From positions 4,152,757-4,216,756 of the forward strand of contig JAWPMS010000001.1 in assembly GCA_033344795.1 (NCBI GenBank): DNA of 64,000 nt, in the 5' to 3' direction. Source of the stretch: Acidimicrobiia bacterium (GTDB taxonomy: Bacteria; Actinomycetota; Acidimicrobiia; Acidimicrobiales; SHLQ01). Positions 5,558 through 21,307 of this stretch are shown here, piece by piece (position 1 is the stretch's first letter; each line of letters opens with the position of its first letter). The position numbers and the translations under genes were made by a program. The notes beneath the pieces were generated by a model, which was not told the DNA's origin, made no database searches, and worked only from the letters and a program-made list of their open reading frames with translations.

Positions 5558-6178
5558 ATGACCATCACGACTGAGCCCGAGGCTCCTGCGGTCAACAGAC
5601 GCAAGGGCAACGGCACGAAAATATTGGCAACACTTGCCGTGTTGTTCCTCGCAGGCACGATCTTTTCGATTGCTTCGCTTGCATTGTTCACCGACCAAGA
5701 GACTGTCGCTGGAAACGCGTTTGCAACAGGAACGGTCGACCTACTGGCGACGCCGGCAACGGCTGTGGTCACCGCAGCCGCGATGGCGCCCGGTGACCAG
5801 GTCACCGCGCCGCTCGACATCGCGAACAGCGGCTCATTGGAGCTGAGGTACTCAGCGACAACGACCACCACCGAAAACACGCTGGCTTCTCTGCTCGCGC
5901 TGACGGTGAAGACAGGAGTGACCGTGTGTGACGATGCCAACTGGGCCACCGATGGCACGGTCATCTACTCCGGAACCCTCGGGTCCACGGCAACTGCGCC
6001 TCTCTTTGGCTCCGCCGTGCAGGGTGCGCAAGGTGGCGACAGAGTGCTTGCCGCTGGCGCGAACGAAGCGTTGTGCATCAACGTGACATTGCCGCTCGCA
6101 ACCGGCAACGCCGCCCAGAACATCACCACCACTGCCACGTTCGCGTTCGACGCAGAACAAACAGCGAACAATCCATAA
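5558..6178 (+). CDS. TasA/camelysin-like exported protein, paralog 3 (most canonical)
   Basis: NRRKGNGTK, then ILATLAVLFLAGTIFSIASLALF, then TDQETVAGNAFATGTVDL. MAPGD..TAPLDIANSGSLELRY. C-terminal FAFDAEQ. Confidence 0.75.
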   Translation: MTITTEPEAPAVNRRKGNGTKILATLAVLFLAGTIFSIASLALFTDQETVAGNAFATGTVDLLATPATAVVTAAAMAPGDQVTAPLDIANSGSLELRYSATTTTTENTLASLLALTVKTGVTVCDDANWATDGTVIYSGTLGSTATAPLFGSAVQGAQGGDRVLAAGANEALCINVTLPLATGNAAQNITTTATFAFDAEQTANNP

Positions 6179-6201
6179 GCCCCGGCGGTAACAGCGTGGT
6201 G

Positions 6202-9200
6202 ATGACCCTGAGCGTTCACAGGAGGGCGGCGGCAGCCGCCCTCCTCTGCGCGCTCGCAGTCATTGTCACGATGAGCGCGGTTGCCGCGGCGAACGTTGCA
6301 CAAGACGACCCCACGGCAGTACCTGGCATCCCTCTCATCAGCGTCGATGGCGACGCCAAAGCCGAAGCAGGTCGACCGTATCTGCTCGACGTAACCGTCG
6401 AAGGCATCGACCAATCCCAAGTCTCCGAGTGGACGGTCTCGTGGGGTGATGGCACGGCTACCAAAGGCACAGGTTCACCTGGCATTGTCGAACACGTCTA
6501 CGAGCATGTCGGGTCCGCACACCAGATAACCGTGAGCGTTATCACCTCAGGCGGCGACACCCTCAGCAACGCCGCTCTTGTCATCTCCAACTACGACACC
6601 GCCAGGGCGCCAACACTCCATCGCATCACGGGCCAGCCGGCGTCAGACCAGCTGGTGGGCGACGCCACGGACAACATCGCATCGGTACTCGTTGGCGCCG
6701 ATGGAGTTCTCTACGCGATCGACGACGTTGCCAACACGATCCTTCGCTTTGATCTCGATCGGAAGACCCGATTCGAGGTGCCTCTCGACCGAGAATCGGT
6801 CGTCCGCCGACCCCGAGCCATGGCCTTCGACGCAGAGGGGCATCTTCTCGTGGCCGACGCAAGCTCGAACGCAATCCATCAGATCGACGTGGATAGTGGT
6901 CAGATCGTGCGAACGATCGCCGGCGACGAGCACCTCAACCGACCCAGCGCGTTGATCATCGGCCCACAGGGCGACCTCTATGTGACGGACGCTGCCGACG
7001 ACGACATCGAACGGTTCGATTTCACCACCGGTCGGCACGTCAGCACCTTTGCGACCTTCGAACCGGGAGCGACGCCAACCTCGCTCGTCTCGGGCCCCAA
7101 CGACACGTTGCTCGTGTCATTGCCAGGTGCCGGCCGAATCGCCTCGGTTTCCAGTTCCGGCCAGGTCGCCAATTTTGGAGCCGATGTCACCACACCAGAT
7201 CAACTCGCGGTTGGGCCCGATGGCGCGCTTTGGGTCTCCGACTACTGGAACGACACCGTCGAGCGCTTCGATCTGAAGTCAGGCGAGACGCTGGACCGAG
7301 AACCAATCGTTGAGGGCACTGCCGGCCCGCGGGGGTTGTCATTCGCACCCGATGTCTCGGTGACGGTCATCGCCCCTTCTGACGCGCCGAGCTCTGACCC
7401 GTCACCCGATGAGCTGACCGCACAAGAGTGGCGCGAGTCGTTGCCCGAGGATCAAAACATCGACGAGCTGATCTTCGTGGCCAACGATGGTGAAGCCGAG
7501 CCCCAGCTCGACTTCATTGCACAATCCGATGACTACATTGCCGTGATCGCCGACAACACCATCGAAGTGGCCCTCGATCAAGCAGAATCCGATCAACTCG
7601 TCACCATGGAGCTCGAGGACGCCACCGAAAAGCCTCCGTCCGGAGCATCGACGGACACCCGTGTCGCATTCGACGACGTCTACGACGGAATCGACGCGGT
7701 GTATTCCGACGACGAGGGTGAGCTCGAATACAGCTTCATCATCGAGCCCGGAGCGGATGTCGACGACATCTCACTGGACTTCGGTGGAGCGGAGACTCTT
7801 CAGATCACCGAACAAGGCGACCTGTTCATCGACGTGTCCGAGGGACCTGATCTACTCTCCACGGCACCCTTCACCTTCCAGTTCATCGATGGTCGACGAG
7901 TTGTCATCGAGAGCTCATACGTCATCCGACCGGACGGCAGGGTGGGATTTGGTCTCGGAGCGTACGACCCCACACGACCGGTCGTGATCGACCCAACGCT
8001 CACCGCTGCGACGAACCTCCTCATGGTCACCGGTACCGGCACTGCTGTCGGAACCGACGCCACCAAACAAGCCCTGTTTCAAAGCTGGGGCTGGACCGTC
8101 ACGCTCATCGACGACGACAGCGTCGGCTCCTTTGCTGGCGCCGCGGCTGCAAATGATGTGTTGTACGTGAGCGGCACGGCCCGATTCGACATCGCCTACG
8201 ACGTTCGAGATCTGGACATCGGCATCGTGAATGAGAATTTCTCGGCTTGGAACGGCCTACTCAACTACGGCTCTCAACCTCAAGCCTTCACCACAGGCAC
8301 AACCCTCAACATCGTCGACAACTCGCACTACATCACGTCACCGTTTGCCACTGGATCCTTGGCGATTCACAGCGTGGGTGATGACATCAACTACTGGCCG
8401 TCCGATAGCGCCCCGCTACCCGCTGGTGTCACCGTTCTGGCTGAATCGCCCACGTCCACCAATCATGAGGCCCTCCACGTCGCCGAGACTGGGACCACGT
8501 TGTATTCCGCCTTCACGGCCGTGAATCGCCGGGTCTGGTTCCCGAGTGACTACGCCGACCCGGCAAACTACACCACCGACTACGAGACGTTGCTGGAGCG
8601 CTCCCTCGACTGGGCTGCCGGGAACGACGCTCCGCCTGCCGCGCCTCAGTCCATCGCGGTGGCGAACCCCGACACTGCGTCAACAGCGCAGGATTTGGCC
8701 ACCACTCTCGACCCGAGTGCGAACGACGCCGATGCCGAGGGTGACCCGATCGTCGAGATCGACGTGACCGACCCAGCCAATGGCAGCGTGGTCATCAACG
8801 GGGACGAAACGGTGACGTACACCCCAGACCCTGGGTATACGGGATCTGACTCGTTCGACTATTGGGCGATCGACTCAGGCGCCGGTCTGACGAACTATTG
8901 GGGCTTGGCCGGAGGAGGCATCGATTCTGTCGGTTCTGCCAACGGCGCCTTGTCTGGCACCACGACGGTGCCCGGTGACTTCGGAGACGCCCTGTCCTTT
9001 AACGAGATCAACGACCGGGTGACCGTGCCTGACTTCGCCTATGGATCAGACTTCTCTCTGTCCTTCGAGTTCAAGCTAGACGACAACACCGGATCGCTGT
9101 TTCAGTACGTGTACAGCCATGGCGACATCAACGCGGTGAACTCGGTGAACGTCTTCATCAACGAGGCGTCGCACGGATCAGACCCCAACATCCTTCGTAC

Positions 9201-12200
9201 CGTCGTTCGCGATGGAAACGACACCTTGGACAACGCGGCCCTTCAGACCAGCATTGCTTCGTTTGTCGGTGACGGCTTGTGGCACACCTACACGGTGACC
9301 GCCGACAGTTCCGCCGGTCTCACGGTCTCGATCGATGGCGTCGCCGTCGCTACCGACGCAACGCGAGGTACAGGGGTCGTCGATCCCACGGGTTCCGCCT
9401 ACTTCGGGACTCGACAGGATCTCGCCGCTGACCGTTGGTACGGCGGAAGTCTCGACTCGGTCCAGATCTACAACCGGGCGTTGACGGGAAGTGAAGTCAC
9501 CGATCTTCACGCCGGCACGAACCGCAGCACTGTGTCGATAACGGTCGCTCCATGCACCGTTGACACAGACGGAGATGGCCTCTGGGACTGCGAAGAAGAT
9601 GCCAACACCGACGCCGACGGCGACCCCGCGACCAACCCCGGCCCTGACACCGACGGCGACACCACCCCCAACTACCTCGACAACGACGACGACGACGACG
9701 GAGCACTGACCTCGGCAGAGAACGCCGACCCCAACAGCGACGGCGACCCACGAGACGCCCAAGACACCGACCACGACGGCGAACCCGACTACCTCGACAC
9801 CGAGGCTGGTGCCTCCAGGACTCCGGTCGCGGCCGAGCAGAAGATCTCCAACACCTCCGGGGGTCTGACGGGCTCCTGGAGCGCCTCAGATTGGGCCGGC
9901 ACTGCGGTCGCATCTATCGGTGACCTCGACGGCGACGGCATCACCGACATCGCGGTTGGCACCAACGGAGATGACGATGGGGGTGCCAACCACGGCGCCG
10001 TCTGGGTGCTGTTCCTCAACGCCGACGGCACAGTGAGGGCCGAGCAGAAGATCTCCGACACCGCGGGCGGGTTCACCGGCACCCTCGAATCCGGGGACCA
10101 GTTCGGCTCTGCGCTGACCGGCCCCGGTGACATCGACGGGGACGGCATCCCAGACCTCGTGGTTGGTGCCCGACTCGACGACGACGGCGGTTCGGGGCGC
10201 GGCGCCGCCTACATCCTCTTCCTCAACACCGACGGCACCGTGCGAGCCGAACAGAAGATCAGCGACGCCCAGGGCGGGCTCGCCACGACCCTCGACACCA
10301 ATGACGAATTCGGCCACGCAGTCGAGGGCATCGGCGACCTCGACGGAGACGGCATTCCCGACATCGCCGTAGGTGCATGGGGCGACGACGACGGCGGTTC
10401 GGGGCGCGGCGCCGTCTACATCCTCTTCCTCAACAGCGATGGGACTGTGCGAGCCGAACAGAAGATCTCCGACATCAGCGGTGGGCTGGCCGCATCGATC
10501 CCCGACGGCAGCAACTTCGGCGTCGGCCTGGGCGACATCGGCGACGTGGACAGTGACGGGATCACCGATCTGGCCGTCGGTGCCTGGAACGACACCGACG
10601 GCGGCAGCGCACGCGGTGCGGTCTACGTTCTGATGCTGAACGCCGACGGCACCGTTGCGGGCGAACAGAAGATCTCGGCGACGGCCGGCGGCTTCGGCGG
10701 CACCCTTGACGCCAGCGACGACTTCGGCGCGGGGGTCAGCGGCATTGGGGACGTCGACGGCGACGGCACCCCCGACCTCGCTGTAGGTGCTCCTCGCGAT
10801 GATGACGGGGGTTCTTCACGGGGTGCGGTGTGGCTCCTGACGCTGAACACCGATGGCACCGTGGGCACGACGAGCAAGATCTCGTCCACCGCTGGTGGGC
10901 TCACGGGTCCCTTGGACGACAACGACCAGTTCGGCTACGAGGTCACCAGCCTCGGCGATCTCGACGACGACGGGTCCCTCAACCTTCTGGTCGGCGCCTG
11001 GGGCGACAGCGACGGCGCATCGGCCGCCGGCGCCGGCTACATCCTCGACCTGTCTCCTCCGTCCTCCACCGTCACTGTCAACTCGACTGGTGACCTGGGC
11101 GACGCCACTCCGGGCGATGGCTCGTGCGATACCGGATTCCTCAACAGCGAGACCAACACCGAATGCACGCTGCGCGCTGCCATCGAAGAAGCGAACGCGT
11201 CCGCGGCCATCGACACGATCCACCTTGACATCCCGACGTCAGATTCCGGCTACGCCGCAGCGCCGCTCGCCTTCACCATCACGCCCGGATCCGTTCTGCC
11301 CGCGATCACGTCGTCGGTCGTTCTCGATGCCACGACACAAAGCGAGTACGCAGGTCGCCCTGTGATCCAACTCGACGGAAAGGACGCGACAGGCGCGACG
11401 GCAGGCATCCTCATTCACGCGGACGACGTCACCGTGAGCGGGTTCATCGTGCACAGCTTTGACGATGAGGGGATCGAGGTCTCCAACTTCAGCAGCAGCG
11501 CTGACCGCAGCACAATCATCAACAACTGGATCGGTATCGACGCATCTGAGGCCACGCGGGCGAACCTCGGCGATGGCGTGCTGGTCACGAGCGGTTCCGC
11601 TGCCAACACCATCGGAAGCCCGGGCCAAGGCAACGTCATCAGCGGAAACGTGGGCGCCGGTGTCTTGATCCGCGGTGTCGACAGCGACGACAACGTCGTG
11701 CAGGCAAACCTCATCGGTGTCGGCTCGGACGGCTCCACAGCCGTTCCGAATGGCAGCGATGGTATCCAGATCAGCGACACCACGACAGGCAACCGAATCG
11801 GTGGCACGCTGGCGACAGAAGCCAACACAATCGCCAACAACGGTGGCGATGGCGTCGCCGTCCTTGCGACGGCGGGATCCGACAACGCCGTTCTCCGAAA
11901 CGAAATCCACTCCAACGCTGGCATGGGAATCGACATCGATCCCAATGGGGTCAACGCCAACGACCCAGGTGATACCGACGGTCCCGGCCCAAATGACTTG
12001 CTCAACTACCCATCCATCACGTCTGCGACGACGAGCGGCATCATTGCGATATTGAACGGCACCTACGACGTGCCGGCCGGGAGCTATCGCTTCGACTTCT
12101 ACAAAAACCCCTCGGGGGCTGACGCCAGCGGCTTCGGCGAGGGCGAGCAGTGGGTGGCGACATCCACGCTGAGTCACAGCGGCTCTGGGGCCGAAGGCTG

Positions 12201-15200
12201 GGGTGCAGCATTTGTCGGCGCGGTTGGCGACATCATCACCATCACTGTCACCGAGGATCTCGGCGGCGGGAACTACGGGTCCACTTCGGAGTTCTCGAGC
12301 GCCGCATCGGTCACAGCTCCAGCGGTCGTGGTCAACTCAACTGGCGATGCAGCGGACCAGACTCCGGGCGATGGATCGTGCGACACCGGCGGGGTGAATT
12401 CTCAACTCGCGACCGAATGCACCCTGCGCGCTGCCATCGAAGAAGCGAACGCGCTCGCCGGCGGCGACACGATCGAGTTCAACATGCCGAGCAGCGAATC
12501 GGGCCACGCGAGCGGCGTGTGGACGATCTCTCCAGCCACCATCTACCCAGAACTGACCGAACGGGTCGAGCTGGACGCATCGTCACAACCTGGTTTCGTT
12601 GGTACACCGATTGTGGAGCTCGATGGCTCATCCCTCTCGGTGTCCTCCGAGCACGGATTACAACTCGGAGTAGGCAGCGACGGGACGACCGTCCGCGGGC
12701 TCTCCATCAGCTCGTTCCCCGGCGCCGGGCTCTACCTCGAGGGTTCCGACAGCCACACCATCGCAGGAAACTACATCGGCCTCAAGGCCGATGGTTCGAC
12801 CGCTGCTGGCAACCGCTACGGCATGTACATGAGCGCCTCGTCGTCGACGACAATCGGCGGAACCACACCTGCCGATCGCAACGTGATCTCCGCCAACACG
12901 TTCTCCGGAGTCGCGGTCTACAACAGCATCGGCTTGGGCCTCGAATCGTTGGACACCGTGATCATCGGCAACTACATCGGCACCGACAGCACTGGAATGT
13001 TGGCCCGCGGCAACGCTCGCGACGGCCTGTTCGTCGTCAACGGCTCATCGCGCACTCAAGTCGGTGGGTCCTCCCCCGGCGAAGGGAACCTCATCTCGGC
13101 AAACACCGATGCAGGTGTCTACGTGGGCTCGGGTTCGATGGTCGACACCGTTGTCGTCGGTAACACGATTGGCGTGAGCGTCGATGAATCGATCGAGCTT
13201 CCCAACGAAATAGGCGTCGAGGTCGGTTGGTCGGAGCGCACAATCGTGCGAGACAACGTCATCGGGTCGGCGACCAGTCATGGTGTGCTGCTCAGTTCCG
13301 CGGACAACGCTGTCGTCGCTGGCAACACCATCGGCACCGATGCAGCGGGGTCTGCGGCGTGGACCATCGGTGGTCACGGCGTGTTGCTCGAGAACACGAG
13401 CGAGCTCAACATGATCGGCGGAACGCTCACCGCCGACGCCAACACCATCACGAACGCTGCACTCTCGGGCGTCGCTGTTCCCGCGACGGCGGGATCCAAC
13501 AACAGCATCCTGCGCAACGAGATCGCAGCAAACACGGGACTCGGCATCGACCTCGATGTCGACGGCGTGACTCCAAACAGCAGCGTTGACGGCTGGTTGG
13601 ACTATCCGGACATCACCTCGGTCGTTTCATCCGGCGGCACGCTCACCACCGAGTTCGACCTCGATGTTCCTGCGGGTGCCTACCGAATCGAGTTCTTCAA
13701 CAACCTCTCTGGGGCCGATGCCAGCGGCTTTGGCGAAGGCGAGACGTTCGTCCACGCCACTACGGCGACGCACACGGGCTCGGGAACCGAGTCATTCTCC
13801 GTCAACTTCGCAGGTTCGTTCGGCGACATCATCACCGCCACAGCGACGCAGGACTTGGGCGGAGGCTCATTCGGATCCACGTCAGAGTTCTCCGGTGCCG
13901 TAGCTGTCTTGCCCGTGGCCGTGGTGAACTCGACCGGCGATTTGGGCGATGCCACGCCCGGTGATGACATCTGCGACACCGGTGGCACCAACTCTGGGCT
14001 CGACGCCGAATGCACGCTGCGGGCAGCCATCGAGGAAGCCAATGCATCGGCTGACGTCGACACGATCGAGTTCGACATGCCAACGTCCGAGGCAGGCCAC
14101 TCAGCCGGCGTGTGGATGATCGAGCCAGGGACGCAGCTCCCGGAGATCACACAGGTCGTCATGCTCGACGCCAGCACTCAACCTGGATGGACCGCCACGC
14201 CGATCGTCGAGATCGACGGCAGCAGCGCAGGCGCGACCACCGATGGCCTTCTCATCAGTGGCGACGACGTCACCATCTCGGGCCTCGCAATCAACCGCTT
14301 TGCCGCGGACGGTGTCAAAGTCCTCGTTGGTGCCCAAAACACCACACTTCGCTCGAACCACATCGGCCTCGATGCGTCGGGTCTGATCGACAGAGGCAAT
14401 GGCGACCGAGGCGTCGACCTGCAAGCCGGGTCGGGTCCAACGACCGTCGGCGGCACGAACGCGATCGACCGCAACGTCATCTCCGGCAACGGCGACGACG
14501 GCATCATCATCTTTGGTTCCGACGACAACATCGTCATCAACAACCTCATCGGAACGGACGTGTCCGGCCTCTCTGCTATCCCGAATGCCGCAGATGGGGT
14601 CGTGCTCGCCAGTGGAAGCGCCGACAACACGATCGGCCAGCCCGGGTTCGGCAACGTCCTCTCGGGCAACGCCAACGATGGCATCGAAATCGACGACACG
14701 ACCGGCCCGAACACCATTCAGAGCAACATCATTGGGCTGGGACTCGACGGGGACGCCCTGGTGCCGAACGGTCGTTACGGCATCGTCCTCTACAACGGAG
14801 CGAACACCACCCAGATCGGTGGCGGCGGAGCCGATCAGGGCAATGTCATCTCCGGCAATGCCACCGACGGCATCTACATTGATGGCAACAACAACGCGGC
14901 CACCACTGCGAACGTCATCGAAGGCAACCTGATCGGCACCGACGGCACGGGCACCCTCGAACGGGGCAACGTTCGCTACGGGATCAGGGTCGACAATGCT
15001 GCGACGTCGACGGTCATCGGTGGCCCCGGGGCGGGAAACACGATCTCCGGCAATGGCGATGATGGCATCTATCTCTCGGATTCGGGGACAGACAACACGA
15101 TCATCCAGGCCAACCACATCGGTACGAATGCCGCCGGTGATGATGCGATCCCGAACGGCGATCGTGGAGTTCAGATCGAGTCGGGAGCGTCGTTCACACA

Positions 15201-18200
15201 AGTGGGTGGCGCGGGCGCAGGCGAGGGCAACGTGATCTCGGCAAACCTCGGCGATGGGGTGATCATCGCCGACTGGTTGGCGCTTGGAACCACCGGCACG
15301 GTCGTCGAAGGGAACTTGATCGGCGTTGAAGCCGACGGTTCGACGCCTCTTGGAAATGGCGGCCACGGAGTGCACGTCGACCCGGTCACCGGCAACCGTA
15401 TTGGCGGAACCGCTGTCGGCGCCGGAAATGTCATCGCCAACAACGGTGCGACCGGGACGCAGATGGCGCCGACCTCAGGCACGAATACCGTTCTCGGCAA
15501 CTCCATCTACGCGAATGCCGACATTGGATTGGGCCTCGGCTGGGATGGAGTGACCCCGAACGACCCCGGTGATGTGGATAGCGGACCCAACGGATTGCTC
15601 AACTTTCCCGAAGTCACCGCGGCGTCGGTGTCGGCCGGTTCGGTGACCGTCGACTTCGAGCTCGACGTACCCGCTGGCGATTACCGCATCGAGTTCTTCA
15701 CCAACCCTTCGGGCGCGGATCCGACGGGTTACGGAGAGGGTGAGGTCCTTGCGGACGCACTCACGATTTCTCACACGGGCTCGGGCGTCGAGTCATTCTC
15801 GACAAGCTTTGCCGGCGCGATCGGTGACGTGATCACCGCCACGGCGACAGAGGACCTCGGCGGATCTCATGGAGCCACGTCGGAATTCTCGGCAGCCGCG
15901 ACAGCCACCGCCACCGACACGATCGTCAACTCGACGGGCGACGCAGGCGACGCCGCTGTTGGCGACGGCGTTTGTGACACGGGGGCCCTCAACAGCGCCG
16001 GCGTGACGGAATGTACGCTCCGCGCCGCGGTGCAGGAGAGCAACAACCTCGGGGCGGCGGCGATCGTCTTTGACATCCCCGCTACCGAGTCCGGTCATGA
16101 TGCCGGTGTGTGGACCATCTCACCGAGCGCTCCATTCGACGACCTCACCGCTCCGGTGAGCATCGATGGTTCGACGCAACCCGGATGGAGCACCACGCCG
16201 GTCATCCAGATCGACGGGTCGGGATCCGGAGCGGCCGCAGACGGCTTCCGGCTGCTTACTGGTTCCGACGGTTCTGAGATCCGCAGCCTTTCAATTGGCA
16301 TCTACGACTCAGACGCGCTCGAGATCCAAAGCAATGATGTGGTCATCGCCGGCAACCACCTCGGCCTCGACGCTGCAGGCACAACTGCGACCCCCATGGC
16401 GACTGGGGCAGGAGTCAACATCTCCGGCGCAGCGCGGACCACGATTGGGGGATCGACCGCGGTTGACCGCAACGTTATTGCGGGTGGGCCCAACGGTGTC
16501 ATCGTCGGCGGTGCCTCGACCGACACCGTGATCATCGGCAACTACATCGGAACGGACGTGACGGGTTCGGCTACGGCTGTCACCTTCAGCCAATACAGCA
16601 TCTACGTTCTCGGCGGCAGCGCCGACACCAGGATCGGTGGACCGCTGACGACCGACCGCAACATCATCGCATCACGCGGGATCTACATCAGAGACGAAAC
16701 CTCCGACAACGTGCTGATCGAGAACAACTCGATCGGCGTGGGAGCGGATGGGACGAGCCCTGTCAGCGTGGCCTCACGCGCCATTCTCGTCTCGGGAGGC
16801 TCCGATGACATCGATGTGATCGACAACGTGATTGGCAACGCGTACCGCGCGGTCGAGATCAACGGCGCAACCACAAACAGCACGGTGCGGGGCAACACGA
16901 TCGGCACCGATGCAGGTTTGACAACCGACCATGGCACGACCGTGGAGGCCATCGAGATCAGCGGTGGCGCCGCCGGCATCCAGATCGGCGGCACGACGCC
17001 AGCGGAGGCCAACCGTATCCAGTTCGTCGGTCTTGGCTTCCCAGCGATCAGCGTCGCTGACGCCGCAACCGATGACGTGCACGTGATGGGCAATTCCATC
17101 CTGCATGATCACGGTGCCATCGACCTCGGAGCCGACGGCCCAACGTCCAACGACCCTGGCGACATCGACGGCGGCGCAAACGACCTGCTCAACTTCCCAA
17201 CTCTGACGGTGACCAACACGACCGGAAGCGGGCCGTTCACCGTCGACCTGGACGTCACTCTCGACACGGCGGCAGGTGATCATCGAATCGAGATCTACTC
17301 GAACGCTGACCCTGGATTCGGTGGGCTGGGCAAGGGCGAGGTTCTCGAGCACACGTTCACGTTCACACACACCGGCAGCGGCCCCGAAACCGTGTCGACG
17401 ACATATGTCGGCTCGTCGTCGACCGCGTTGTCCGCTACGGCGACCGAAGAGTTCGGTGGTGGCACATACGGGTCAACGTCGGAGATGTCACCGATTGCGG
17501 CCATCGCTGCAGACGCGGTCGTGAACTCGACCGGTGACTTGGGCGACGCCGACCTGAACGACGGACAGTGCGACACGGGCGGCACGAACAGCGACGGTGC
17601 CACCGAGTGCACGTTCCGGGCAGCGATCGAACAAACCAACCGGGCCATCGCCTCGAGAGTGGATTTCGCCATCCCGAACACAGACTCCGGCTACGACGTC
17701 GGCGGCTACTGGACCATCAACCAGGCCACCGACTACGAGGACATTTTCGCCTCGACGACCGTCGATGGCAGCACCCAGCCTGGATGGGACGGGTCACGTC
17801 CAGTCGTGTTCATCAACGACAACTCCTCGGGAACCGACCATTTGACCGCATTCGGGGACGACGTCACGCTGCGCTCGCTCGCCCTGGGAAACCCAGGTGA
17901 CGATGGGGTTCAAATCGAAGGCAACCGGGCCACGCTCGATGACCTGTGGATCGGCATCGACCCCACGGGAGCTGATGCAGGGCGTCCTGGAACGGGCAAC
18001 GAAGGTGTCATCGTCTACAACGGGGCCACAGACCTCCTGATTTCCGACAGCCGTATCGCCGGCTTCGACTCCGGCATCATCTCGAACTCTGGGACCATCG
18101 ACGCGACGGTCAGCAACACCGAGATCTTCAATAACCGCAACGGCGGTATCGCGTTCGACAATCTCGGCCGCGTCACCGCGATTGGCAACTCGATCCACGA

Positions 18201-21195
18201 CAACATCGGACTGGGCATCGACCTGAGCGTCAACAATGGCATCCCCCTACCGAACGATCCGGGCGATACCGACACCGGAGGCAACGACCTCCTGAACTAC
18301 CCCGTTCTCACCGGAGCCACGATCGGGGCTGGCTCCCTCGACATCACCTACGACCTCGACGTCCCTGCAGGCACGTACCGGATCGAGTTCTTCGACAACG
18401 CAGCGCCCGACCCGTCTGGCAACGGCGAGGGGGAAACGTTCGTAGCGTCGGCGACGCTCACCCACGGCGGAGGAGCGGCGTCGTATCTCACGACAATTCC
18501 GGGCGTGGTGGGCGACGTCATCACCGCAACGGCCACCCCCGATCTCGGCGGAGGAACCTACGAGGGGACATCGGAGTTCTCCAACGCACTCGCCATCGGG
18601 GTGGTGTTCGTGAACTCGACAGCCGATGCCTCTGATGCTTCGGCTGGCGATGGCGCCTGTGACACCGGGGGCCTCAACAGCGACGGGAACGCTGAGTGCA
18701 CCTTGCGAGCAGCCATCGAGGAGACCGCTGCGAACTCGGGCTACGACCACATCCGCTTCACGATCCCCGAGACAGATCCCGGCTTTGTTGCTGGGGCGCC
18801 CTCGTACTGGACGATCTCGCCAGCAACCACGCTCCCGTTTGTCTCCGACACGATCGAGATCGATGCAACGACCCAACCGGGGTGGGTCGACAGTCCGGTC
18901 ATCGAACTCGATGGGTCTGGCGTGGTGAGCGCTGGCGCCGACGGCATCAATTTGGCGACGGGGATGACTCTACGGGGTTTCTCCATCACGGGGTGGCTCG
19001 ACGACGGTGCGTTCAGCGACCAGGACGACATCGTCGTGGCTGGCAACTGGTTCGGCATCTCGCCCGACGGTACCCCGCTCGCCAATCAGGGCACTGATCT
19101 CGTTCTCTATGGCGCAAGTGATGGCGCGACGATCGGCGGTCCCGACGCAGCCGACACCAACATCTTTGCCGCCGGTGGCTCCGAGGACGGAGTCATGCTC
19201 AGCGGCGATACAACGAACGCCGTCGTCGAGAACAACCGATTCGGCGTCGCTGCTGATGGGGTGACCGGCCTTGGAACAGCCACTGCGGAACTTCTGGTCA
19301 TCGTCGACAACGCTTCGGACATTCTGGTGGTCGACAACCAGTTCGGTGACGCACCCAACGCGTCTGTGACCTTGTGGGCCGATCCGACGAACGTCACCAT
19401 CGTCGGCAACATCTTCGGCACGGATGACACGGGAACGGCGGTTCTCCCCGTGGGCCAAGCCGTGTATGCGCAAGCCGCCGGCAGCGCACGATTCGGCGGG
19501 ACCACCTCGAGCGAGTGGAACACGATCCGCAACGTCCTCTGGCAGGCGGTCTTGCTCGACGCAGGCCACACCGGGTCCTTCAGCTACCTCGGAAACTCGA
19601 TGACCGGTTCCGGCCTGTATGGGATCGACCTGAGCGGAGACGGAACCACATCCAATGATGCTGGTGATGCTGACAGCGGTCCGAACGACAACCTGAACGT
19701 CCCCGAGATCTCATCGGTCGTCGAGAGCGGTGGCACCGTGCGGGTCTCCTTTGGGCTCGACGTACCGGCGGGCACCTACCGGATCGAAGCGTTCACGAAC
19801 CCGAGCGGCGCACATCCGACCGGGTTCGGCGAGGGCGAGGTCTTCGAAACATCGGCGACGATCACGCACGCGGGCTCCGGTCGACAGAGCTACGAGGTCA
19901 CGTTCCCCGGAAGTATCGGCGAGCTGGTCTCGTTGACGACGACGCAAGATCTTGGTGGCGGACTGTTCGGCGCCACGTCGGAGTTCTCACAGACCGTTCA
20001 AGCAACCGACCCCGCCCTCATCCTCGAGGACGACCGCTCAGAACGACGTTCCGACCTCGCCAGTAGCGGCGGGGTGAGCATCAGCGGTGACAGCGCGCCT
20101 GGTCAGGCAGGGCTCGCCGTGCACTTCGACGGGTCCAACGACCGTTTCGTCGGCCCAGCGGTCGACATCACCGACGCGGCGCTCACGATGTATGCCAGCT
20201 TCAATGCCGACGGGCTCACCGGCGACCCTGTCCTGCTCTCGAAGAGGACCAGCGCCGGATCGCCGATCTACGAGCTCTCGATCGATTCGGGGACCGGCGA
20301 GGTCGTCGCCGAAGTACGCACGAACAGTGGCCCAGCGGTCGCACGGGGCGGTTCCATCGCGGCTGGGACCTGGCATCAGGCGCTCGCCACGTGGGACGGC
20401 GCCGAGTTGGTCTTGTTCGTCGACGGGCTCGAGGTCGATCGCGTCGCCCTCACCGGAGCCCTTACGGTCGATGTGGCGACCGATGTCATCATCGGCAGCA
20501 CGAGCACGAACTCGGCTCCGTTCGATGGTCTGATCGACGATGTCCGCGTCTCTCATGAAGCCACGGATAGCGCTACCGCAGACGCCTTGGCGCAAAACCA
20601 AACCATGGTGGGGTTCGTCTCGGTGGGCGGCGAACAGACATCGGCACCCTCGCCGTGGACGACGAGCAGCGTGCAGACAAGGTCCGGCTCCTTCGCGCTG
20701 TCGGCTCCGGAAACGAGCGGATCCGGCGCCGCAGCATGGGCGGTGGCCACTGGTATCGACGAACCTGGACTCGTCTTTGAATCTTGGTGGTGGTTCAGCT
20801 CGAACACCGGCGTCGATTTGTCCTCTGGCACCCGTGCGGGTGAGGCGCCAACCGATCAGTACGAAGCTGCACTGACATCGCCGTCGGGTTGGGAACTCCG
20901 CCAACGAAGCGGCGGCACAGGGTCGTTCGACGCTCCCGCCGCCGGCTCGCCAACCGCTGGTGCGTGGGTCAACGTCGAGATTCGAACAGATCAGTTCGGA
21001 GCCACTCGCCTGTTCATCGATGGCAGCGAAGTGACGACCACAACTCCGCAGGGTTCTGCGCTGTTGAGCGGCTCGATGGCGCTACGCGCAGGACTGCTCC
21101 CCACTGGCCAGACCTGGTACATCGACGATGCTCGCGGCCGAAAGCTGGTCACGCCGGAGCCCGTCACCTCAGTGGGCCCCCTCGACAGGAATTGA
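6202..21195 (+). CDS. Giant secreted multidomain protein (~4997 aa): PKD, NHL propeller, cadherin-like, LamG, Ca-binding repeats, FG-GAP propeller, six CSLREA/beta-helix modules, two C-terminal ConA-like domains
   Basis: Single open frame. Sec-type signal peptide MTLSVHRRAAAAALLCALAVIVTMSAVAAA. ATG 6202 lies 23 nt after the TasA-like stop; the ORF-track start at 6073 overlaps that gene. Domain motifs are listed under the sub-features and findings. Confidence 0.9.
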   Translation: MTLSVHRRAAAAALLCALAVIVTMSAVAAANVAQDDPTAVPGIPLISVDGDAKAEAGRPYLLDVTVEGIDQSQVSEWTVSWGDGTATKGTGSPGIVEHVYEHVGSAHQITVSVITSGGDTLSNAALVISNYDTARAPTLHRITGQPASDQLVGDATDNIASVLVGADGVLYAIDDVANTILRFDLDRKTRFEVPLDRESVVRRPRAMAFDAEGHLLVADASSNAIHQIDVDSGQIVRTIAGDEHLNRPSALIIGPQGDLYVTDAADDDIERFDFTTGRHVSTFATFEPGATPTSLVSGPNDTLLVSLPGAGRIASVSSSGQVANFGADVTTPDQLAVGPDGALWVSDYWNDTVERFDLKSGETLDREPIVEGTAGPRGLSFAPDVSVTVIAPSDAPSSDPSPDELTAQEWRESLPEDQNIDELIFVANDGEAEPQLDFIAQSDDYIAVIADNTIEVALDQAESDQLVTMELEDATEKPPSGASTDTRVAFDDVYDGIDAVYSDDEGELEYSFIIEPGADVDDISLDFGGAETLQITEQGDLFIDVSEGPDLLSTAPFTFQFIDGRRVVIESSYVIRPDGRVGFGLGAYDPTRPVVIDPTLTAATNLLMVTGTGTAVGTDATKQALFQSWGWTVTLIDDDSVGSFAGAAAANDVLYVSGTARFDIAYDVRDLDIGIVNENFSAWNGLLNYGSQPQAFTTGTTLNIVDNSHYITSPFATGSLAIHSVGDDINYWPSDSAPLPAGVTVLAESPTSTNHEALHVAETGTTLYSAFTAVNRRVWFPSDYADPANYTTDYETLLERSLDWAAGNDAPPAAPQSIAVANPDTASTAQDLATTLDPSANDADAEGDPIVEIDVTDPANGSVVINGDETVTYTPDPGYTGSDSFDYWAIDSGAGLTNYWGLAGGGIDSVGSANGALSGTTTVPGDFGDALSFNEINDRVTVPDFAYGSDFSLSFEFKLDDNTGSLFQYVYSHGDINAVNSVNVFINEASHGSDPNILRTVVRDGNDTLDNAALQTSIASFVGDGLWHTYTVTADSSAGLTVSIDGVAVATDATRGTGVVDPTGSAYFGTRQDLAADRWYGGSLDSVQIYNRALTGSEVTDLHAGTNRSTVSITVAPCTVDTDGDGLWDCEEDANTDADGDPATNPGPDTDGDTTPNYLDNDDDDDGALTSAENADPNSDGDPRDAQDTDHDGEPDYLDTEAGASRTPVAAEQKISNTSGGLTGSWSASDWAGTAVASIGDLDGDGITDIAVGTNGDDDGGANHGAVWVLFLNADGTVRAEQKISDTAGGFTGTLESGDQFGSALTGPGDIDGDGIPDLVVGARLDDDGGSGRGAAYILFLNTDGTVRAEQKISDAQGGLATTLDTNDEFGHAVEGIGDLDGDGIPDIAVGAWGDDDGGSGRGAVYILFLNSDGTVRAEQKISDISGGLAASIPDGSNFGVGLGDIGDVDSDGITDLAVGAWNDTDGGSARGAVYVLMLNADGTVAGEQKISATAGGFGGTLDASDDFGAGVSGIGDVDGDGTPDLAVGAPRDDDGGSSRGAVWLLTLNTDGTVGTTSKISSTAGGLTGPLDDNDQFGYEVTSLGDLDDDGSLNLLVGAWGDSDGASAAGAGYILDLSPPSSTVTVNSTGDLGDATPGDGSCDTGFLNSETNTECTLRAAIEEANASAAIDTIHLDIPTSDSGYAAAPLAFTITPGSVLPAITSSVVLDATTQSEYAGRPVIQLDGKDATGATAGILIHADDVTVSGFIVHSFDDEGIEVSNFSSSADRSTIINNWIGIDASEATRANLGDGVLVTSGSAANTIGSPGQGNVISGNVGAGVLIRGVDSDDNVVQANLIGVGSDGSTAVPNGSDGIQISDTTTGNRIGGTLATEANTIANNGGDGVAVLATAGSDNAVLRNEIHSNAGMGIDIDPNGVNANDPGDTDGPGPNDLLNYPSITSATTSGIIAILNGTYDVPAGSYRFDFYKNPSGADASGFGEGEQWVATSTLSHSGSGAEGWGAAFVGAVGDIITITVTEDLGGGNYGSTSEFSSAASVTAPAVVVNSTGDAADQTPGDGSCDTGGVNSQLATECTLRAAIEEANALAGGDTIEFNMPSSESGHASGVWTISPATIYPELTERVELDASSQPGFVGTPIVELDGSSLSVSSEHGLQLGVGSDGTTVRGLSISSFPGAGLYLEGSDSHTIAGNYIGLKADGSTAAGNRYGMYMSASSSTTIGGTTPADRNVISANTFSGVAVYNSIGLGLESLDTVIIGNYIGTDSTGMLARGNARDGLFVVNGSSRTQVGGSSPGEGNLISANTDAGVYVGSGSMVDTVVVGNTIGVSVDESIELPNEIGVEVGWSERTIVRDNVIGSATSHGVLLSSADNAVVAGNTIGTDAAGSAAWTIGGHGVLLENTSELNMIGGTLTADANTITNAALSGVAVPATAGSNNSILRNEIAANTGLGIDLDVDGVTPNSSVDGWLDYPDITSVVSSGGTLTTEFDLDVPAGAYRIEFFNNLSGADASGFGEGETFVHATTATHTGSGTESFSVNFAGSFGDIITATATQDLGGGSFGSTSEFSGAVAVLPVAVVNSTGDLGDATPGDDICDTGGTNSGLDAECTLRAAIEEANASADVDTIEFDMPTSEAGHSAGVWMIEPGTQLPEITQVVMLDASTQPGWTATPIVEIDGSSAGATTDGLLISGDDVTISGLAINRFAADGVKVLVGAQNTTLRSNHIGLDASGLIDRGNGDRGVDLQAGSGPTTVGGTNAIDRNVISGNGDDGIIIFGSDDNIVINNLIGTDVSGLSAIPNAADGVVLASGSADNTIGQPGFGNVLSGNANDGIEIDDTTGPNTIQSNIIGLGLDGDALVPNGRYGIVLYNGANTTQIGGGGADQGNVISGNATDGIYIDGNNNAATTANVIEGNLIGTDGTGTLERGNVRYGIRVDNAATSTVIGGPGAGNTISGNGDDGIYLSDSGTDNTIIQANHIGTNAAGDDAIPNGDRGVQIESGASFTQVGGAGAGEGNVISANLGDGVIIADWLALGTTGTVVEGNLIGVEADGSTPLGNGGHGVHVDPVTGNRIGGTAVGAGNVIANNGATGTQMAPTSGTNTVLGNSIYANADIGLGLGWDGVTPNDPGDVDSGPNGLLNFPEVTAASVSAGSVTVDFELDVPAGDYRIEFFTNPSGADPTGYGEGEVLADALTISHTGSGVESFSTSFAGAIGDVITATATEDLGGSHGATSEFSAAATATATDTIVNSTGDAGDAAVGDGVCDTGALNSAGVTECTLRAAVQESNNLGAAAIVFDIPATESGHDAGVWTISPSAPFDDLTAPVSIDGSTQPGWSTTPVIQIDGSGSGAAADGFRLLTGSDGSEIRSLSIGIYDSDALEIQSNDVVIAGNHLGLDAAGTTATPMATGAGVNISGAARTTIGGSTAVDRNVIAGGPNGVIVGGASTDTVIIGNYIGTDVTGSATAVTFSQYSIYVLGGSADTRIGGPLTTDRNIIASRGIYIRDETSDNVLIENNSIGVGADGTSPVSVASRAILVSGGSDDIDVIDNVIGNAYRAVEINGATTNSTVRGNTIGTDAGLTTDHGTTVEAIEISGGAAGIQIGGTTPAEANRIQFVGLGFPAISVADAATDDVHVMGNSILHDHGAIDLGADGPTSNDPGDIDGGANDLLNFPTLTVTNTTGSGPFTVDLDVTLDTAAGDHRIEIYSNADPGFGGLGKGEVLEHTFTFTHTGSGPETVSTTYVGSSSTALSATATEEFGGGTYGSTSEMSPIAAIAADAVVNSTGDLGDADLNDGQCDTGGTNSDGATECTFRAAIEQTNRAIASRVDFAIPNTDSGYDVGGYWTINQATDYEDIFASTTVDGSTQPGWDGSRPVVFINDNSSGTDHLTAFGDDVTLRSLALGNPGDDGVQIEGNRATLDDLWIGIDPTGADAGRPGTGNEGVIVYNGATDLLISDSRIAGFDSGIISNSGTIDATVSNTEIFNNRNGGIAFDNLGRVTAIGNSIHDNIGLGIDLSVNNGIPLPNDPGDTDTGGNDLLNYPVLTGATIGAGSLDITYDLDVPAGTYRIEFFDNAAPDPSGNGEGETFVASATLTHGGGAASYLTTIPGVVGDVITATATPDLGGGTYEGTSEFSNALAIGVVFVNSTADASDASAGDGACDTGGLNSDGNAECTLRAAIEETAANSGYDHIRFTIPETDPGFVAGAPSYWTISPATTLPFVSDTIEIDATTQPGWVDSPVIELDGSGVVSAGADGINLATGMTLRGFSITGWLDDGAFSDQDDIVVAGNWFGISPDGTPLANQGTDLVLYGASDGATIGGPDAADTNIFAAGGSEDGVMLSGDTTNAVVENNRFGVAADGVTGLGTATAELLVIVDNASDILVVDNQFGDAPNASVTLWADPTNVTIVGNIFGTDDTGTAVLPVGQAVYAQAAGSARFGGTTSSEWNTIRNVLWQAVLLDAGHTGSFSYLGNSMTGSGLYGIDLSGDGTTSNDAGDADSGPNDNLNVPEISSVVESGGTVRVSFGLDVPAGTYRIEAFTNPSGAHPTGFGEGEVFETSATITHAGSGRQSYEVTFPGSIGELVSLTTTQDLGGGLFGATSEFSQTVQATDPALILEDDRSERRSDLASSGGVSISGDSAPGQAGLAVHFDGSNDRFVGPAVDITDAALTMYASFNADGLTGDPVLLSKRTSAGSPIYELSIDSGTGEVVAEVRTNSGPAVARGGSIAAGTWHQALATWDGAELVLFVDGLEVDRVALTGALTVDVATDVIIGSTSTNSAPFDGLIDDVRVSHEATDSATADALAQNQTMVGFVSVGGEQTSAPSPWTTSSVQTRSGSFALSAPETSGSGAAAWAVATGIDEPGLVFESWWWFSSNTGVDLSSGTRAGEAPTDQYEAALTSPSGWELRQRSGGTGSFDAPAAGSPTAGAWVNVEIRTDQFGATRLFIDGSEVTTTTPQGSALLSGSMALRAGLLPTGQTWYIDDARGRKLVTPEPVTSVGPLDRN
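6337..7360 (+). other. PKD-like domain followed by NHL-type beta-propeller repeats
   Basis: PKD: WTVSWGDGT...HVYEHVGSAHQITVSV. NHL: LYAIDDVANTILRFD, HLLVADASSNAIHQID, DLYVTDAADDDIERFD, ALWVSDYWNDTVERFD. Confidence 0.6.
8944..9515 (+). other. LamG/concanavalin-A-like domain 1 of the giant protein
   Basis: ALSFNEINDRVTVPDF...FSLSFEFK...WHTYTVTADS...GGSLDSVQIYNRALTGSEV. Confidence 0.6.
9553..9803 (+). repeat. Thrombospondin-type-3-like Asp-rich Ca-binding repeats
   Basis: DTDGDGLWDCEEDANTDADGD...DTDGDTTPNYLDNDDDDDG...DPNSDGDPRDAQDTDHDGEPDYLD. Confidence 0.6.
9826..11055 (+). repeat. FG-GAP/integrin-alpha-like propeller repeats, period ~69 aa (six full units plus a partial one)
   Basis: Recurrent (D/N)(Q/E/D)FG...GD(L/I/V)D(G/S/D)DG(I/T)(P/T)D(L/I).VGA..DDDGGS.RGA.(Y/W)(I/V)L.LN.DGTV..EQKIS. 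Confidence 0.75.
11077..20010 (+). repeat. Six tandem CSLREA-cap, parallel beta-helix (PbH1) and C-terminal beta-sandwich modules
   Basis: Module starts (VNST(G/A)D) are at 11077, 12331, 13924, 15925, 17521 and 18610. Each has EC T(L/F)RAA(I/V)(E/Q)E(A/S/T)N, then N.IG...G.(S/T)GN-type helix turns, then NDPGD.D.G.N(D/G)LLN(Y/F)P ... YRIEFF.NPSGAD..G(F/Y)GEGE ... TSEFS. Confidence 0.8.
20110..21160 (+). other. LamG-like domain 2 plus a further ConA-like C-terminal domain; no LPXTG-type sorting signal seen
   Basis: AVHFDGSNDRFVGP...WHQALATWDG...FDGLIDDVRVSHEA, then WVNVEIRTDQFGATRLFIDGSEV...WYIDDARG. The protein ends ...VTSVGPLDRN. Confidence 0.55.
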
Positions 21196-21307
21196 TCTCG
21201 ACTTTAGCTCTCTTTGGGTAGTTCGGCCCTGGGACGACGACCACTCTGCGTGGTGTAGTTGTGGTGGGTTGACCGCACACCGCCGTCACGAGATTGAGAG
21301 CTCCCTG

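Follow-up and report, generated by a model that had tools for sequence, protein, structure and literature searches.

Proteins of the CSLREA type, recognised by the model TIGR04214 (CSLREA_Nterm), share with the protein analysed here a C-T-L-R-A-A motif that comes after a V-N-S-T-x-D segment where a beta-helix begins, and several relatives (for example P0012, P0014, P0021 and P0094) have already been named CSLREA by NCBI or JGI. In those portions of the literature covered by our search, the term CSLREA is mentioned only in passing, and a literature search found no paper on a multi-cassette architecture. Many beta-helices of the NosD/CASH kind act as enzymes or bind sugars. Judged by sequence profiles, the closest solved structure is PDB 8WM1, an Acinetobacter 3-dehydroshikimate dehydratase and a remote homologue with a single cassette. 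Proteins of this QuiC type (8WM1; P0241 of A. baumannii, ~485 aa) follow the same three-part plan in a single copy, with a signal peptide, a cap (GSLRWAIEQAN), a NosD-like beta-helix and a C-terminal unit, and by annotation are periplasmic or secreted enzymes. Elsemore and Ornston are said to have noted in 1995 that Acinetobacter QuiC was similar to no known sequence, and a literature search returned nothing on 8WM1 or on a beta-helix dehydroshikimate dehydratase. An A. baumannii type II secretion substrate named 'CSLREA domain-containing protein' was considered as a possible QuiC-type protein and rejected, as TIGR04214 misses P0241. RbtA (rhombotarget A, A. baumannii; PDB 9CDV/9CDU), the first solved structure of its class (PMC12643943), is a secreted protein of the cell surface with a beta-helical N-terminal domain. 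The PDB searches retrieved neither RbtA entry with a cassette profile (E<=1) or a cap profile (E<=10), and RbtA was rejected as a close relative since neither profile detects a sequence relation.

The window analysed here is a 64,000-nucleotide stretch of DNA from an Acidimicrobiia bacterium. The region of interest, 11077-20010, lies inside one intact gene on the forward strand that encodes a giant secreted protein of 4,997 aa. The open frame starts at 6073 (GTG) or 6202 (ATG) and ends at 21195, giving 5,040 codons in the list of open reading frames and its translation, and the database gene call P0002 is identical in the ATG form. The gene and its cassettes are laid out as follows.

6202-21195, + strand: whole gene of the giant secreted protein (open reading frame list, translation, Pfam matches, P0002)
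11077-12330, + strand: cassette 1, 418 aa (TIGR04214 19.6 bits, Beta_helix 28 bits); cap at ~11077-11211 with Cys17/Cys30 and the helix LRAAIEEAN, then the beta-helix, then the C-terminal unit at 11920-12303
12331-13923, + strand: cassette 2, 531 aa, C-terminal unit at 13537-13899 (TIGR04214 23.5, Beta_helix 55, NosD 44.6 bits)
13924-15924, + strand: cassette 3, 667 aa, the longest, C-terminal unit at 15520-15897 (Beta_helix 54, para_beta_helix TIGR03804 30.2 bits)
15925-17520, + strand: cassette 4, 532 aa, C-terminal unit at 17113-17496 (TIGR04214 15.8 bits, no Pfam match alone)
17521-18609, + strand: cassette 5, 363 aa, the shortest, with CTFRAA, C-terminal unit at 18208-18588 (same-length orthologues in P0009, P0022 and P0003)
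18610-20010, + strand: cassette 6, 467 aa, C-terminal unit at 19615-19995 (orthologue: cassette 4 of P0022)

Based on Pfam matches, the protein begins with a signal peptide, a PKD-like/NHL propeller, DUF7948, Big_9/Cadherin_5 and LamG, continues with Asp-rich Ca-type repeats and an FG-GAP propeller, and ends, after the six cassettes, with two LamG-type domains. Propeller, LamG and Ig-type binding modules are found at both ends. It carries a Sec signal, is acidic and almost free of Lys (371 Asp and Glu against 72 Lys and Arg in the cassette region), and no cell-wall anchor was recognised at its C-terminus.

The initial annotation had described six in-frame tandem cassettes of 418, 531, 667, 532, 363 and 467 aa within one protein, already diverged at the DNA level, and each of these points is confirmed, the lengths exactly. 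VNST starts fall at nt 11077, 12331, 13924, 15925, 17521 and 18610, C[ST][LF]R[EA]A motifs at 11164, 12418, 14011, 16012, 17608 and 18697, and TSE[FM]S ends at 12297, 13893, 15891, 17490, 18582 and 19989. Compared pairwise by BLASTP, the cassettes align over their full or near-full length at 32-47% identity (E 1e-49 to 1e-91). A six-copy, 120-nt DNA family lies exactly at the cassette starts (spacings 1254, 1593, 2001, 1596 and 1089 nt), and its copies, the best-conserved part of the cassettes, are only 65-74% identical; the suspected six-fold periodicity is therefore real and diverged. Tandem Repeats Finder reports just the FG-GAP repeats and, further downstream, a duplication of 246 nt; it misses the cassettes because their period exceeds 500 and the copies have diverged. 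The proposed consensus strings were approximately right, with small deviations in three cassettes: cassette 2 has DQ for DA and replaces the Asp-rich NDPGDxDxGxND loop with a short connector, PNSSVDGWLDYP; ND..C and CTFRAA appear in cassette 5, and EETAAN in cassette 6.

Each cassette opens with a CSLREA-type cap that holds a Cys17-Cys30 pair and a capping helix, continues as a right-handed beta-helix and ends in a C-terminal beta-sandwich of ~127 aa. The motif C-[ST]-L-R-[EA]-A reads CTLRAA in five of the six copies. TIGR04214, whose curated cutoff is 25 bits, recognises the whole protein (65.9 bits, E 2e-18, four stretches), as had been anticipated, yet no copy reaches the cutoff singly: cassettes 1 to 4 score 19.6, 23.5, 18.9 and 15.8 bits, cassette 6 scores 17.5 and cassette 5 is unmatched. 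About 40 cap residues align to 25 positions of the model, so the cap contains an inserted loop, which bears the second Cys. Every Cys of the array sits at position 17 or 30 of one of the cassettes; these six cap pairs account for 12 of the 15 Cys residues of the protein, and both positions are invariant in 52 cassettes. Contrary to what the name of the model implies, the first copy lies at residue 1626 of 4,997, with five more after it, whereas in the relative P0009 the array begins at residue 21. 'Nterm' is where the model was trained and not a rule. A search of the PDB with a cap-only profile gave chance matches only.

The helix bodies carry the N.I..N...GI.I repeat signature of the NosD/PbH1/CASH models (PF05048, PF13229; TIGR03804), with above-threshold matches that agree with the predicted fold, although these models describe the helix only and leave the cap, the C-terminal unit and a 62-aa super-repeat outside. 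Pfam recognition of the helix held for the whole protein, at 132.3 bits in six stretches for Beta_helix (PF13229) and 65.4 bits for NosD (PF05048), both above the gathering thresholds, and for five of the six cassettes taken alone (27-55 bits), but not for cassette 4 alone. Cassette 3 contains five to six super-repeats of 61-67 aa with the pattern GNxIGxDxxGxxxxxN..GIxI..NxIGG....GNVISGN..DGIxI. Measured over 359 cassettes, length shows a periodicity of ~62 aa (Rayleigh R 0.40), and all six cassettes of the giant protein lie at its peaks. From the strand spacing in DSSP strings we infer that one step may correspond to two helix coils, one minimal and one with a TDxxGxxxxxN loop. The unequal cassette lengths probably arose by gain or loss of the super-repeat.

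No Pfam or NCBIfam model covers the C-terminal unit, and a PDB search with a profile of its six copies returned nothing at E<=10. Its profile matches 16,121 representative proteins, the best 150 of which all have 2-8 copies, and within the same genus it occurs mostly several times per large open frame. The linker from one C-terminal unit to the next cap has a median of 9 aa (288 junctions). The three-part cassette with its C-terminal sandwich, which had been read from the letters alone, was borne out by AlphaFold2: cassette 1, with the 52 homologous cassettes in the input, was modelled at pLDDT 95.4 and pTM 0.94, with the cap helix at 32-41, regular short beta-helix strands at 47-287, sandwich strands at 313-403 and lower confidence only in the Asp-rich connector. 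For cassettes 1 and 2 modelled jointly (pLDDT 92.5, pTM 0.65), the prediction is confident in each module and only partly defines their mutual orientation.

The six units in series had been called unusual, a view that the relatives do not support. Among 239 database relatives, caps and C-units frequently alternate in arrays of 2 to 12 cassettes, with (NC)3 in 16 proteins, (NC)4 in 12, (NC)5 in 5 and (NC)6 in 6 including the giant protein; (NC)7 and (NC)8 also occur, and the largest array, in P0003, has 12. Judged from these sequences, a string-of-cassettes design recurs commonly among the giant surface proteins of many different bacteria. The protein analysed here is therefore a good example of a widespread module rather than a one-off. 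The partners of the arrays elsewhere include RHS repeats (P0111), a dockerin (P0038) and RTX (P0059), and in many cases cadherin, FG-GAP or LamG domains. Giant adhesin-like proteins of Chloroflexota, Verrucomicrobiota and Burkholderiales also combine tandem beta-helices with the ~127-aa unit, each followed by a cap within ~10-20 residues. In these other phyla, however, the caps lack the Cys pair (VxNTNDxGxGSLRQAI in P0048, P0052 and P0106; VDTTxD...GxDGxISLREAI in P0066, P0120, P0025 and P0018), and the partner domains are DUF4347/cadherin, DUF11 or Calx-beta instead of FG-GAP/LamG.

In a tree of the cassettes, copies 2 and 3 are sisters (support 90/89) and each other's closest relatives, so at least one duplication was internal. 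Cassette 4 groups with cassette 4 of P0009 and cassette 2 of P0022. The orthologues of cassette 5 in P0009, P0022 and P0003 are 356-358 aa long and 55-61% identical in the helix body, and cassette 6 and its orthologue, cassette 4 of P0022, both span 462 aa between the start of the cap and the end of the C-unit. Cassettes 4-5-6 are orthologous in order and length to those of P0022, and 4-5 to those of P0009; since cassettes 4-6 have positional orthologues in other proteins, the array is old. At the 55-60% protein identity of orthologous cassettes, synonymous sites are saturated. Helix bodies are 45-61% identical between orthologues against 26-39% between paralogues, which could point to cassette-specific ligand or catalytic surfaces as opposed to a passive spacer.

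Upstream, on the same strand, the giant gene is preceded by five others.

1-651, + strand: EAL domain gene (Pfam scan)
651-1262, + strand: small open reading frame, no Pfam match in the scan
1241-1900, + strand: small open reading frame (upstream same-strand context)
1897-5454, + strand: S26/SipW-like-DUF2341-LamG fusion (Pfam scan)
5558-6178, + strand: third small gene, with a Peptidase_M73 match (Pfam scan)

This upstream order also adjoins the homologous giant genes P0020 (L077) and P0022 (L078), and the cluster of GGDEF/EAL, TasA-like (Peptidase_M73) and S26-DUF2341-LamG genes is syntenic in three genomes. We infer from this a functional association, not homology, between a TasA/SipW-type matrix cluster and the giant gene.

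Its Sec signal, its acidic and almost Lys-free composition and the binding modules at both ends make a role in the extracellular matrix or in adhesion the most likely one for the giant protein. On balance we lean towards reading its array as old, specialised copies of a self-folding module that form a disulfide-stapled, segmented stalk or binding region. The module would be a right-handed parallel beta-helix shut at both ends. At the N-terminus the predicted cap comprises the extended VNSTGD segment, a loop stapled by the putative Cys17-Cys30 disulfide and the amphipathic helix LRAAIEEAN; at the C-terminus, a seven-to-eight-strand Ig-like sandwich would be attached through the Asp-rich connector NDPGDxDxGxND, which probably binds Ca. 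Because each helix has its own two end-caps, the helices could fold in turn outside the cell and avoid end-to-end pairing, the caps thereby having an anti-aggregation role. The ~9-residue linkers would string the modules into a stalk that would extend the protein's reach and present several distinct, flat binding faces. The protein may act together with its gene neighbours, namely the TasA-like fibre genes, the dedicated SipW-like signal peptidase and the c-di-GMP enzyme.

The cassettes might instead be carbohydrate-binding or carbohydrate-active units of the CASH type, for instance lyases, hydrolases, epimerases or lectins. The giant protein would then be no stalk but a row of six different heads that recognise or process glycans. 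The Pfam Beta_helix and NosD matches, the LamG lectin-type domains flanking the array, weak PDB profile matches to inulin fructotransferase and mannuronan C5-epimerase, and the helix bodies and exact lengths that orthologous cassettes keep across proteins are all consistent with this. The best Foldseek match to the cassette model is also an enzyme, pectate lyase Pel9A, then a phage tailspike; the top matches are beta-helix proteins, in keeping with the predicted fold, but weak (E 7e-4 at best, TM ~0.3), and further ones, at E>=0.015, are to generic Ig-like sandwiches such as those of TapA, GH2 Ig domains and Bap. Across 52 cassettes, the helix body keeps only structural Asn and Gly and one Asp at invariant or near-invariant positions, which leaves it without a shared cluster of catalytic appearance. 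The arrays elsewhere are joined to toxins, dockerins and cadherins, a pattern expected of a generic spacer. We regard six glycan-active heads as rather doubtful, though worth keeping in mind.

A second enzymatic reading, that the cassettes are small-molecule enzymes like the QuiC-type 3-dehydroshikimate dehydratase of Acinetobacter, draws on a 52-cassette profile that matches 8WM1 in two stretches across cap, helix and C-unit (hmmsearch, E 2.3e-13), on an hhalign alignment with P0241 (97.5% probability, 350 columns) and on the similar C-unit strings (YQVEFF...EAE...ATSEL against YRIEFF...GEGE...TSEFS). The relationship is nevertheless remote and found by profile methods only; 8WM1 is absent among the Foldseek matches listed for the cassette model, so the structural link is through sequence profiles alone. 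The QuiC-type cap is short, lacks the Cys17-Cys30 loop and is unmatched by TIGR04214 in P0241, and the Asp-rich connector is missing. Conversely, the cassettes lack both Cys-containing insertions of the QuiC family, one of ~30 aa that follows the first coils and one of ~60 aa that precedes the C-unit (P0241 ~100-130 and 325-390). An extracellular protein of 5,000 aa in a matrix-gene cluster is, moreover, an unlikely site for aromatic catabolism, and we consider this reading very improbable. Still less credence is given to the idea of an array without cassette-specific meaning, produced by recent and unstable repeat expansion or by faulty assembly. Repetitive genes are prone to mis-assembly and the sister cassettes 2 and 3 attest internal duplication, but the low DNA identity of the copies, the 5,040 codons open on a single 4.87-Mb contig and the positional orthologues of cassettes 4-6 stand against it, and divergence and orthology largely refute it.

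A broader reading is possible, and we put it forward tentatively: the cap, beta-helix and Ig-like unit may together be a previously undescribed self-contained block that varies in ~62-aa steps and serves, in arrays of 2-12 across several phyla, as a ruler or stalk. QuiC would then be a single cassette with acquired catalysis, and none of the six cassettes would be able to stand in for another, each having a conserved binding face of its own. Under such a reading the arrays serve adhesins, toxins and matrix proteins, and the C-terminal unit would be a large uncatalogued domain family of at least 16,000 clusters at 50% identity.

In summary, a metagenome-assembled genome has yielded one more giant surface protein of the 'CSLREA domain-containing' kind. 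What is gained is a clean definition of a three-part repeating module whose abundant C-terminal domain has no family model, together with a ~62-aa step rule that would explain the large differences in cassette length. In addition, these giant proteins are linked by profile to a solved structure, 8WM1, that is usable as a template. Acidimicrobiia, of which hardly any have been cultured, abound in soils, sediments and sea water. The conserved place of the giant gene beside TasA-like, signal peptidase and c-di-GMP genes may offer a testable entry to matrix building in this class.

The six cassettes, each a CSLREA-type cap, a right-handed beta-helix and a C-terminal beta-sandwich (C-unit), belong to one giant protein encoded by a single open frame. 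The host genome belongs to an uncultured Acidimicrobiia bacterium and consists of a single 4.87-Mb contig.

6073-21195, + strand: giant-protein open frame of 5,040 codons, enclosing 11077-20010

The gene likely starts at the ATG at 6202, where a typical Sec signal peptide opens (MTLSVHRRAAAAALLCALAVIVTMSAVAAA), and the 4,997-aa product is identical to the database gene call P0002. Based on Pfam, NHL-type propeller repeats, DUF7948, a Big_9/Cadherin_5 Ig domain, LamG and FG-GAP repeats lie N-terminal of the cassettes, and one further LamG domain lies C-terminal. The FG-GAP propeller blades form a 207-nt tandem repeat in the DNA (window 10012-10674; 3.2 copies, 74-78% matches) and are less diverged at that level than the beta-helix cassettes.

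As the initial annotation had proposed, there are exactly six VNST starts, six C[ST][LF]R[EA]A motifs and six TSE[FM]S ends, all where they were claimed to be, and the lengths of 418, 531, 667, 532, 363 and 467 aa were reproduced, every cassette being in frame. All cassette pairs align by BLASTP over full or near-full lengths (32-47% identity, E 1e-49 to 1e-91), and their multiple alignment has 57 invariant columns, clustered at both ends. The six-fold periodicity expected in the DNA takes the form of a 120-nt family with six copies precisely at the cassette starts. Because these copies are only 65-74% identical, the duplications are old.

The CSLREA model TIGR04214 (CSLREA_Nterm) matches the whole protein at 65.9 bits against a cutoff of 25, but each single cassette stays under it (15.8-23.5 bits), and cassette 5 (CTFRAA) goes unmatched when scanned alone. 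About 40 cap residues align to 25 model positions, and the cap therefore contains an insertion. With cassettes taken alone, Pfam Beta_helix accepts five of the six and fails on one; NosD passes for two, with a third under threshold. The last ~127 residues of every cassette match no Pfam or NCBIfam model at E<=1.

Cassette 1 was modelled with AlphaFold2 from an alignment of 52 cassettes of the window and related genomes. The model (mean pLDDT 95.4, pTM 0.94) predicts the cap-helix-sandwich order that had been described from the sequence:

N-terminal segment: extended
residues 32-41: helix LRAAIEEAN
about residues 47-287: beta-helix
residues 288-312: connector NDPGDTDGPGPND, of lower confidence
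residues 313-403 (window 12013-12285): sandwich of seven to eight strands

A model of cassettes 1-2 (949 aa) kept a pLDDT of 92.5 while pTM fell to 0.65; the modules are predicted to be well defined and their mutual orientation only partly so. Foldseek returned only weak matches for the beta-helix (pectate lyase Pel9A, E 7e-4; phage tailspike) and generic Ig-like or CBM-like domains for the sandwich (E>=0.015). TapA, the TasA-anchoring protein of B. subtilis (6hqc), is among the weak sandwich matches (E 0.015, TM 0.49 on target); the resemblance is probably generic Ig-like, though curious beside the TasA-like neighbours of the gene.

The protein has 15 cysteines: one in the signal peptide, two where the Asp-rich repeats begin and 12 in the cassettes. 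The latter occupy cassette positions 17 and 30, both invariant across the 52 cassettes, and the obvious reading would be that a Cys17-Cys30 disulfide staples the cap loop. The sole Cys pair outside the caps flanks CTVDTDGDGLWDC (window 9553-9591, residues 1118-1130 from the ATG), where the Asp-rich Ca-type repeats start, and probably forms another small disulfide loop. The helix-to-sandwich connector itself recurs in two forms, a long Asp-rich NDPGDxDxGxNDLLNxP and a short N..LDxWLDxP without the acidic loop. The short form is present in cassette 2 (C-unit 13537-13899) and in several cassettes of other proteins, and the pair of motifs suggests Ca-dependent and Ca-independent versions.

The closest solved structure, matched by a profile of the 52 cassettes, is PDB 8WM1 (484 aa; E 2.3e-13, two stretches), deposited as a 3-dehydroshikimate dehydratase. 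As in the cassettes, the match spans a cap (SLRWAIEQAN), a helix and a C-unit (YQVEFFSN...EAE...ATSELS). A fragment of the 8WM1 chain is 98% identical to the A. baumannii protein P0241, which carries a signal peptide and aligns with the cassette profile at 97.5% probability over 350 columns (hhalign). Unlike the cassettes, P0241 has two extra Cys-containing insertions and a short cap that lacks the Cys loop; it is unmatched by TIGR04214. Its family comprises ~485-aa proteins of Acinetobacter, Psychrobacter and Pseudomonas, whose database names vary between 3-dehydroshikimate dehydratase, NosD domain-containing protein and beta-helix repeat protein. Going by these names and by Elsemore and Ornston (1995), we take it to be the classical Acinetobacter quiC product; a literature search found no paper on 8WM1. 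Judged by sequence, a single-cassette, solved and apparently enzymatic relative exists, remote from the cassettes, and the features most likely to form its active site appear to be missing from them.

Cassette length follows a rule. The long-cassette helix is built of a 61-67-aa super-repeat, GNxIGxDxxGxxxxxN..GIxI..NxIGG....GNVISGN..DGIxI. Among 359 cassettes of <900 aa from 239 database relatives, lengths recur at intervals of about 62 aa, peaking near 345, 405, 460, 525, 590, 655 and 715 aa (Rayleigh R 0.40, a descriptive value as cassettes share kinship). From the start of the cap to the end of the C-unit, the giant protein's cassettes measure 356, 409, 462, 523, 524 and 658 aa, and all fall on these peaks. 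Since long strands are spaced ~30 residues in the model, and given the sequence register, we infer that one ~62-aa step would comprise two coils, the minimal coil having ~23 residues and the other, with the TDxxGxxxxxN loop, ~40. Beta-helices usually rise 4.8 Å per coil, and by rough estimate the six helices would together span roughly 30 nm, to which the six Ig-like domains are added.

In a tree of 73 cassettes from 12 proteins, built from cap and C-unit, cassettes mostly group with those of database relatives (_cN denoting cassette N). Cassette 5 clusters with P0009_c5, P0022_c3 and P0003_c6, which match it in length (356-358 aa in every case; support 100/99). The partner of cassette 6 is P0022_c4, each being 462 aa long. 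P0009_c4 and P0022_c2 accompany cassette 4, and P0011_c2 and P0007_c1/c2 accompany cassette 1; within the giant protein a sister relation links only cassettes 2 and 3. Helix bodies are 45-61% identical between orthologues, at matching lengths, versus 26-39% between paralogues. These groupings and identities indicate that the array is ancient. Blocks such as 4-5-6 are passed on as units, recurring in proteins with different other domains. In P0009 the six cassettes begin at residue 21, the 'N-terminal' situation behind the NCBIfam model name.

Six units in series had been considered unusual, yet alternating arrays are frequent among the relatives scanned. A long-protein search gave 311 relatives; the 120 listed, together with the best representative-search hits, were scanned with HMMs for cap (N) and C-unit (C). 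Arrays of (NC)3 occurred in 16 proteins, (NC)4 in 12, (NC)5 in five and (NC)6 in six including the giant protein, alongside (NC)7, (NC)8 and 12 cassettes in one 6,948-aa protein. Over 288 junctions, a median of 9 residues separates a C-unit from the cap that follows. The initial annotation was right on the cassette parts and wrong on rarity; this kind of protein is known but unstudied.

The C-unit profile detects 16,121 representative proteins at E<=1e-3 (8,893 at E<=1e-10), and all of the best 150 of the 16,121, a ranking that favours multi-copy proteins, carry 2-8 copies. Many further proteins combine multiple C-units with other cap variants: Chloroflexota- and Verrucomicrobiota-type proteins use VxNTNDxGxGSLRQAI, and Burkholderiales DUF4347/cadherin giants use VDTTxD...GxDGxISLREAI. 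By genome, the Cys-loop cap variant belongs mainly to Acidimicrobiales; Woeseiaceae, Thermoleophilia and Rhodothermales contribute a few cases. The C-unit is present in 10 of 19 genomes of the genus, including this one, usually several per large frame, and absent from the 12 genomes searched from other families in the order; in the host genome it is confined to the giant protein. The cassette-array gene is an accessory type, patchily distributed. Arrays are fused elsewhere to RHS repeats (P0111), dockerin (P0038), RTX repeats (P0059) or cadherins, and the array is therefore a widely reused carrier for differing functional ends.

The giant gene has the following neighbours, domains being Pfam matches:

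upstream, + strand: EAL-domain gene
651-1262, + strand, upstream: small ORF with no Pfam match
1241-1900, + strand, upstream: small ORF
upstream, + strand: fusion of S26/SipW-like peptidase, DUF2341 and LamG, 1,185 aa
upstream, + strand: small gene with a Peptidase_M73 (camelysin/TasA family) match
21128-23671, downstream: gene for a secreted 847-aa protein
L077 1-9483 and L078 21104-30064 (loci in two other assemblies): conserved GGDEF/EAL, TasA-like and S26-DUF2341-LamG cluster beside homologous giant genes

In those assemblies the same cluster (GGDEF-EAL, small TasA-like genes, a ~1,190-aa DUF2341/LamG fusion and another TasA-like gene) directly adjoins the homologous giant genes P0020 and P0022. 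Conservation of this neighbourhood is our chief reason for assigning the giant protein to adhesion or extracellular matrix biology. L077 has the N-terminal PKD/NHL/FG-GAP part in a gene of its own (1,244 aa), ahead of the cassette protein; the giant protein is therefore split or fused differently between genomes. The 847-aa gene contains a 246-nt tandem duplication (window 22937-23474; 2.2 copies, 97% matches), far younger than any cassette duplication of the giant gene.

A beta-helix is left with an open hydrophobic end and with edge strands that lack partners; in pectate lyases, autotransporter passengers and other beta-solenoids, caps at both ends shield the core and prevent end-to-end association. 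With its own N-cap, its own C-terminal sandwich and short linkers joining the modules, each of the six helices could fold independently after Sec export; the anatomy is as expected for that. The modules would then make up a segmented chain, and how many two-coil steps it contains would fix its length. A reach-and-bind element fits better than a catalytic one, because the same arrays carry RHS toxins, dockerin, RTX repeats or cadherins elsewhere, because the helix body lacks shared catalytic-looking residues across the 52 cassettes, and because the composition is acidic (D+E 371 vs K+R 72 in the cassette region; Lys 0.2%) with an Asp-rich connector. The main rival is that individual cassettes have ligands of their own, most plausibly glycans; each orthologous helix body is conserved, which leaves room for such specificity. 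Alongside the preferred reach-and-bind role, the analysis yields useful by-products: a large uncatalogued domain, a cassette length rule and a structural template.
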